Assembly: GCA_038852315.1 (NCBI GenBank)
Contig: JAWCKF010000004.1
Coordinates: 27,265 to 91,264, forward strand
From: Thermoplasmata archaeon
GTDB taxonomy: Archaea > Thermoplasmatota > Thermoplasmata > UBA10834
Reading direction: 5' to 3'
Length of the DNA stretch: 64,000 bases
Part shown: one piece after another, positions 58,780-58,943 of the stretch
How the letters are laid out: every line of letters begins with the position of its first letter
How positions within the stretch are numbered: position 1 is the first letter of the stretch
The notes under the pieces: model-generated
What the model saw: only the letters and a program-made list of their open reading frames with translations
Database searches by the model: none
Told to the model about the DNA's origin: nothing
Program-made: the position numbers and the translations under genes

Positions 58780-58875
58780 GGCGGTTGTAAGAGCGCACGA
58801 CGGTATAAAAACGGATTGCCTCAGCAGTCGGGATTGGCGCAGTTCCCCTAAAATAAGCGATTGATGATGCACGTG

Positions 58876-58943
58876 GCAGGTGATGAGAAGAGGGTCAGCT
58901 GAGGTCCTCCGGGACCGGTGATGAGCCCTATGAGTGCTGAAAA
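58876..58943 (+). ncRNA. Box C/D methylation guide sRNA
   Basis: C box GTGATGA 58880-86; 12-nt guide GAAGAGGGTCAG; D' CTGA 58899-902; hairpin spacer GGTCC-TCCG-GGACC; C' GTGATGA 58918-24; 12-nt guide GCCCTATGAGTG; D CTGA 58937-40; TATA-like TAAAATA at about 58849. Confidence 0.92.

Follow-up and report, generated by a model that had tools for sequence, protein, structure and literature searches.

One guide RNA for the wobble position of elongator tRNA-Met is the haloarchaeal sR-tMet (Rfam family RF02163), reportedly described by Joardar et al. in 2011. It is a box C/D guide that acts on the intron-containing precursor, and reports on haloarchaea attribute Cm34 of the elongator to a box C/D RNP that contains it (PMC4033218; PMC6601510); a tRNA-Met sRNA of Haloferax is among the predictions in Additional file 5 of PMC2584109. 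For Pyrococcus, a review mentions an sRNA that targets the first anticodon position of tRNA-Met (PMC7994747); judging by its Rfam consensus, sR41 (RF01126) would be this guide. Human SNORD97 and SCARNA97 are likewise described as box C/D RNAs for Cm34 of elongator tRNA-Met (PMC6601510), but these eukaryotic RNAs are themselves intron-encoded, and the tRNA on which they act lacks this intron.

A second position of interest here is C1920 in helix 69 of 23S rRNA, a helix described as a methylation hotspot in hyperthermophiles (PMC4644070). Bacterial TlyA is reported to make Cm1920 (PMC5778110), as a protein-only enzyme that is not RNA-guided. In Nanoarchaeum equitans, a DPANN hyperthermophile, the box C/D sRNA sR20 is said to guide Cm1920, the authors citing mass spectrometry and RiboMeth-seq as data not shown; the second guide of sR20 is directed to 16S G1530, and to no tRNA (PMC5389701).

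The locus considered here is predicted to bring both positions under one RNA. The host is a hot-spring Thermoplasmatota MAG (89% complete, 38 contigs, 1.71 Mb, 60% G+C), and near-identical DNA is present in hot-spring metagenomes. The window, meaning the whole stretch of 64,000 nucleotides that was analysed, is C4:27265-91264 of the assembly; positions below are those of the window unless a contig is named. On its (+) strand, at 58880-58940, lies a box C/D sRNA gene in which all four boxes (C, D', C' and D) are perfect; its parts, with the element upstream, are these:

58849-58856, + strand: TATA-like element TAAAATAA, about 24-31 nt upstream of box C
58880-58886, + strand: box C, GTGATGA
58887-58898, + strand: D' guide, 12 nt, GAAGAGGGTCAG
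58899-58902, + strand: box D', CTGA
58903-58916, + strand: D'-C' hairpin GGTCC-TCCG-GGACC, 5 bp with loop TCCG
58917, + strand: single G between the hairpin and box C'
58918-58924, + strand: box C', GTGATGA
58925-58936, + strand: D guide, 12 nt, GCCCTATGAGTG
58937-58940, + strand: box D, CTGA

The spacings from C to D' and from C' to D are exactly 12 nt each, and the four perfect boxes, two 12-nt guides and D'-C' hairpin that an earlier note on this DNA had reported are borne out. A strict four-box pattern (RTGATGA, 10-13 nt, CTGA, 2-24 nt, NTGATGA, 10-13 nt, CTGA) has a single match on the two strands of the 1.71-Mb assembly, namely this site, and no match in any of five block-shuffled genomes. 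On sequence grounds, then, the locus is a real and conserved gene for a box C/D methylation guide sRNA of roughly 61-68 nt; in Thermoplasmatota it corresponds to sR-tMet and sR41, and its second guide is aimed at 23S C1920. The full reading, in which the sRNA directs both Cm34 of elongator pre-tRNA-Met and Cm1920 of 23S rRNA, we regard as probable. A looser box pattern adds two doubtful candidates in the same genome, at C1:100022-100085 (-) and C3:65587-65641 (+); both have degenerate internal boxes and may be chance.

Rfam at its gathering thresholds gives no match in the whole window. The sR-tMet covariance model scores 20.2 bits against a gathering score of 50 and aligns only over the C'-guide-D part; there its consensus D guide, GCCCUAUGAGUG, is identical to the D guide here at 12 of 12 positions, and the resemblance to the haloarchaeal guide seen in the earlier note is thereby upheld. 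The 5' half and the D' guide of sR-tMet are unrelated to those of the present sRNA, and the haloarchaeal consensus has UGACGA as its C' box and a D box other than CUGA, whereas here all four boxes are canonical. The sR41 model reaches 36.4 bits against a gathering score of 54, aligning well over the D-guide half, where its consensus has GCCCUAUGAG in common with this sRNA, and poorly over the 5' half; sR41 has another D' guide and a short D'-C' spacer with no hairpin, in a model of 53 nt. The best Rfam E-value belongs to Pyrococcus sR3 (RF01133; 36.1 bits, gathering score 41), whose consensus D' guide resembles the one here around GGGUC and whose D guide is different. The likeness to N. equitans sR20 is drawn from its described target.

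Conservation among relatives is strong and sharply bounded. BLAST finds the sRNA in 25 of 27 relatives of the same order, the two misses being assemblies 84% and 67% complete. All four boxes are kept in the 26 same-order copies (this one included); positions 2-11 of the D' guide are perfect in 23 of these, match at 9 of 10 positions in one and at 8 of 10 in two, and positions 2-11 of the D guide are perfect in 24, with a G at position 11 leaving 9 bp in G001 and G003. Most same-order homologs keep both guides, the check that the earlier note had proposed. Guide position 12 and the flanks are unconserved, and conservation stops at box C on one side and box D on the other. Across alignment A1, which comprises 47 distinct copies, the TGATGA core of box C is essentially invariant (one copy reads ATGAAGA), while box D', the TGATGA core of box C' and box D are invariant. 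The exact dual-guide pattern is present in 45 of 301 genomes sampled from the class, and a reversed-pattern control in none. It occurs in 16 of 16 genomes of the same genus, in 33 of 39 of the same family, and in 2 of 3, 4 of 7, 3 of 5, 1 of 5 and 1 of 3 genomes of five other families; the other families searched among the 301 gave no match.

The two guides differ in reach. A scan of public genomes for the D-guide half gives at least 120 matches, and the figures here are those among the 80 loci listed: 7 are bacterial coding sequence or chance and 73 are archaeal; 26 have a perfect helix 69 guide, 8 have it with one or two changes, and 39 of the 73 archaeal loci combine the same D guide with other, variable D' guides. 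Because of these 39, the helix 69 guide is lineage-restricted and dispensable; the tRNA-Met guide is the old, widely kept half of the molecule and the helix 69 guide its lineage-restricted partner. Named records with the same RNA are mostly MAGs of Thermoplasmata, Thermoplasmatota, Methanomassiliicoccales, DHVE2 and Poseidoniales.

Two sets of matches lie outside this range. In a MAG labelled Caldisphaera sp., a crenarchaeon, one contig begins (L137) with a nearly identical 3' part of the sRNA with the hairpin, and a D' guide, GAAGAGGTCAA, that is one G short of the helix 69 guide; the contig may have been mis-binned, or the copy may be real and distant. A 20-letter D-guide pattern also matches a conserved stretch in SAR116 bacteria (L081, L084, L085, L142 and L145). 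The upstream DNA there has no box C or D' in register, and these matches are rejected as sRNAs; they look like unrelated chance matches, probably inside a gene.

The target of the D guide can be found in the genome itself. ARAGORN locates three tRNA(CAU) genes, and the only one with an intron, C27:10462-10569, has 31 nt inserted at 37/38 and reads GACTCATA up to the junction and GGGAGTC after it. Positions 2-11 of the D guide (58926-58935; CCCTATGAGT) pair perfectly with A31-A37 and intron bases +1 to +3, and the N+5 base, G58932, fifth upstream of box D, pairs with C34. This is the intron-containing tRNA-CAU, with C34 at N+5, on which the earlier note had staked the D guide: ACTCATA followed across the junction by GGG is found in the C27 gene, and in neither the initiator-type nor the Ile2-type gene. 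In those two the sequence is GCTCATAACC, which leaves the D guide with only about 6-7 possible pairs. One of them has A1-U72, which we take to be an archaeal initiator feature; the other has an acceptor stem in common with the genome's tRNA-Ile(GAU), matches that tRNA at 57 of 75 positions, and is probably tRNA-Ile2. With the other two CAU genes so accounted for, the C27 gene is elongator tRNA-Met; and since those two offer so few pairs, the discriminating ones are supplied by the intron.

In the proposed mechanism, the D guide would form 10 bp with the intron-containing elongator pre-tRNA-Met, 7 with exon nucleotides (31-37) and 3 with intron nucleotides, and would direct 2'-O-methylation of wobble C34 prior to splicing, the three intron pairs conferring specificity against the initiator and the tRNA-Ile2-like CAU tRNA. 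Comparison within the class is consistent with this: of 37 tRNA-Met loci, each from a different genome, 35 read CTCATA-GGG (the hyphen marks the junction), and elsewhere the intron varies freely; the two exceptions are a GCG in G036 and a locus cut by the contig end in G018. By hand reading, a bulge-helix-bulge is possible in the pre-tRNA-Met, its central helix having C34 at the mismatched position; the minimum-free-energy fold differs, and the two 3-nt bulges are not drawn in it. One record counts against the full reading: for elongator tRNA-Met of Thermoplasma acidophilum, Table 1 of PMC4307237 lists G*26, Cm32 and Cm56, and Cm34 is not among the entries of that table.

Another tRNA gene of this genome bears on guides of a different kind. 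In the tRNA-Trp gene at C7:25301-25473, outside the window, a 99-nt intron contains TGATGA and CTGA boxes, and 8 nt of it are antisense to the gene's own anticodon region; it may be the intron-encoded box C/D guide that other Euryarchaeota are known to have.

The target of the D' guide rests on relatives, since no 23S gene was found in this assembly. Positions 2-11 (58888-58897; AAGAGGGTCA) pair perfectly with TGACCCTCTT, the 3' strand of helix 69 in the relatives' 23S, and the longer stretch GGGGTAACTATGACCCTCTTAAGGT is present in all seven of the 23S genes that were read (one from the same genus, two from the same family, one from another family of the class and three reached via named loci). 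The N+5 base, G58894, makes a Watson-Crick G-C pair with the first C of CCC. In the alignment to annotated E. coli 23S this C falls at annotated position 1922. The helix 69 loop uridines are numbered 1915 and 1917 in the literature (PMC2584109) and fall at annotated 1917 and 1919 in the E. coli record used; the annotation therefore runs 2 nt ahead of standard numbering, and the target is standard C1920. The pairing of the D' guide with helix 69 at C1920 proposed in the earlier note holds, then, in 7 of 7 relatives, while the search of the genome's own 23S came to nothing with the gene itself absent from the assembly. By this guide the sRNA would form 10 bp with the 3' strand of helix 69 and direct 2'-O-methylation of the C1920 equivalent.

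Each guide accordingly makes 10 contiguous Watson-Crick pairs, N+5 included, with a stable RNA, where at least 9-10 were taken as the minimal duplex and the D' guide was judged on the relatives' 23S genes. The complementarities had been put at 11-12 bp; they stand over 10, at guide positions 2-11, and positions 1 and 12 pair with neither target.

Close to the helix 69 target, some relatives have an insertion of their own. A group I intron (RF00028; 61.4 bits, gathering score 50) lies in the 23S gene of G001, of the same genus, at L023:2515-2717 (-), right after ...CTCTTAAGGT and between E. coli 1931 and 1932, which puts it 5 nt downstream of the target. The inserted DNA measures about 254 nt in both G001 and G022, as against about 698 nt in G019; G039, G044 and G045 lack it.

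One way to read the narrower distribution of the D' guide is to suppose that the sRNA is real and that only its D guide, on tRNA-Met C34, methylates, the D' match being a non-methylating chaperone contact, or decaying, or fortuitous. The D guide is far more widely conserved, 39 of the 73 archaeal loci among the matches listed having other D' guides, and the two same-order copies that match at 8 of 10 D' positions face an unchanged helix 69. One variant D' guide, GAAACGGGTCAG, occurs in G022 (L058) and G027 (L061) and makes fewer pairs against the unchanged helix; among the genomes with variant D' guides, helix 69 is unchanged in G022, G041 and G045, and no alternative target for those guides was found in the 23S loci of these three. 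An orphan second guide would have company: in Pyrobaculum, Lui et al. put at about 80% the tRNA-targeting sRNAs whose second guide is an orphan (PMC6009581). The absence of 23S from this assembly also leaves room for such a reading.

The D-guide half cannot, however, easily be made the whole story. Positions 2-11 of the D' guide are intact in 23 of 26 same-order copies, next to a position 12 and flanks that vary freely; the same D' guide recurs in other families of the class; the pair at N+5 is a Watson-Crick G-C; and sRNA-guided methylation of the same site is reported, in the terms given above, for N. equitans (PMC5389701). It counts against the two-target reading, on the other side, that guide-target covariation is impossible with both targets invariant. 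On balance, we consider it unlikely, though worth keeping in view, that the D guide acts alone. The GAAACGGGTCAG variant is also present in L102 and L115, and resembles the sR3 consensus D' guide around AACGGGUC.

A more ambitious perspective supposes that the two guides are paired for a reason and not by accident, and also that the tRNA-Met intron is retained across Euryarchaeota mainly for the specificity given by its first three bases. Abundant pre-rRNA bound to one guide might stimulate the activity of the other, or both methylations might be regulated together; those three intron bases would prevent the guide from acting on the initiator and on tRNA-Ile2, in which C34 would have to stay free for its own modification. 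Both propositions together make a doubtful case, and we would put little weight on it.

A further scenario has one or both guides acting mainly on other RNAs, for example mRNAs that contain the same 10-mers. Such sites exist: TGACCCTCTT occurs 7 times in this genome, one of these being the sRNA's own antisense, which leaves 6 further sites, and ACTCATAGGG has 2 further sites. These counts are at chance level (in G001, 8 occurrences of TGACCCTCTT and also 8 of the reversed control), and therefore the case for the targets rests on their location and conservation. The stable-RNA targets are invariant across the class and lie at sites known to be modified elsewhere, and we find it very improbable that other RNAs are the main substrates.

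The hairpin between the two guides covaries. In A1, 96.4% of cells of the D'-C' hairpin pair, and all five pairs are changed on both sides; none of 500 shuffles reaches the observed covariation values, and controls slid along the alignment pair in 24-61% of cells. The hairpin would give the internal C'/D' motif a canonical stem and so complete a full kink-turn. Many archaeal sRNAs have very short terminal stems or none, and a conserved terminal stem closing the C/D kink-turn gives no signal over the 47 loci here: flank duplexes have an energy of -3.96 kcal/mol vs -3.76 kcal/mol for mismatched flanks (p = 0.29). The properly stemmed motif in this sRNA is the internal C'/D' one, and a stem on that motif rather than on the terminal one is the reverse of the usual archaeal layout.

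The gene sits in a conserved divergent intergenic region, between a LysE-type transporter gene on the (-) strand and a small membrane-protein gene. All 19 of the relatives' loci compared have the order nadA, lysE-type (- strand), sRNA, hjc (- strand); of these 19 syntenic loci, 10 have a small membrane ORF after the sRNA and 9 lack it. In the window that ORF, if begun at GTG 58934, formally overlaps the D guide, and the earlier note had taken the overlap with its 5' end as real; with homologues of the ORF, however, the alignment begins only at residue 14-30, and GTG 58934 is for that reason an over-extended start, an artefact of ORF extension. Nor was anything found that bears on the link, also ventured there, to relaxed start-codon usage.

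Upstream, 40 of the 47 distinct homologous loci have an A[AT]ATA motif that starts 26-30 nt before box C, where the background is 1% of 17-nt windows. We infer that TAAAATAA is part of the sRNA's own archaeal promoter, with a transcription start adjoining box C. That the locus is unexpressed, a chance set of box-like motifs or the 5' region of the downstream ORF, is scarcely credible: for all the formal overlap at GTG 58934, the four-box pattern is absent from shuffled genomes, conservation stops sharply at boxes C and D while the flanks diverge, the hairpin covaries, and the ORF both starts later by homology and is missing in 9 of 19 syntenic loci.

Other elements of the upstream region have features of their own. 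A stronger TATA-like element, GTATAAAAA, at 58803-58811, about 68 nt upstream of box C, is conserved, with TATATAAC or TATTTAAC plus CCGTG as the relatives' version; it probably drives transcription of the divergent lysE-type gene, in which the conserved coding region begins at about 58776. A second box-C-like copy, TGATGATG, lies at 58862-58869, 11-18 nt upstream of the real box C, and the distance between box C and a conserved GATT element is here about 8 nt greater than in relatives; the shift and the second copy suggest a small local insertion or duplication.

The proteins for such an RNA are encoded in the same genome: fibrillarin (PF01269, 243.7 bits), Nop5 (PF01798, 195.9 bits) and L7Ae (PF01248, 99.1 bits) all score above the Pfam cut-offs, so that the genome has the enzyme that uses such guides. 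The sRNA, once transcribed, would assemble with L7Ae, Nop5 and fibrillarin into a methylation sRNP. The metagenome runs listed with near-identical DNA include none recorded as RNA; in two runs labelled metatranscriptomic, out of four examined, one contig ends at 58833 and another begins at 58925, and none spans the sRNA. Many archaea have the genes for Nop5 and fibrillarin side by side; here they are on separate contigs (C2:49688-50314 and C3:3545-4165) and not adjacent.

How unusual is the combination? A limited literature search found no description of this dual guide in Thermoplasmatota. The earlier note had thought it notable that one sRNA should serve both a tRNA and an rRNA; both complementarities are indeed present, but the arrangement is less exceptional than was implied, both target sites having precedents. 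Given the proportion of orphan second guides reported for Pyrobaculum (PMC6009581), a tRNA guide paired with an rRNA guide is a less common arrangement and no new principle.

The analysis yields a firm annotation for an RNA gene that the curated Rfam thresholds miss in Thermoplasmatota. Two modifications are predicted: Cm34 of elongator tRNA-Met, introduced before the precursor is spliced, and Cm at the equivalent of C1920 in helix 69 of 23S rRNA. No new class of mechanism is involved: this is a well-conserved, fairly ordinary relative of guides described in other archaea. It does show how far conservation extends, from haloarchaea and Thermococcales to Thermoplasmatota, both for the guide to the tRNA-Met wobble base and for the start of the tRNA-Met intron; and genomes in which the D' guide is intact, degenerate or different would form a natural comparison set for the dependence of Cm1920 on this RNA.
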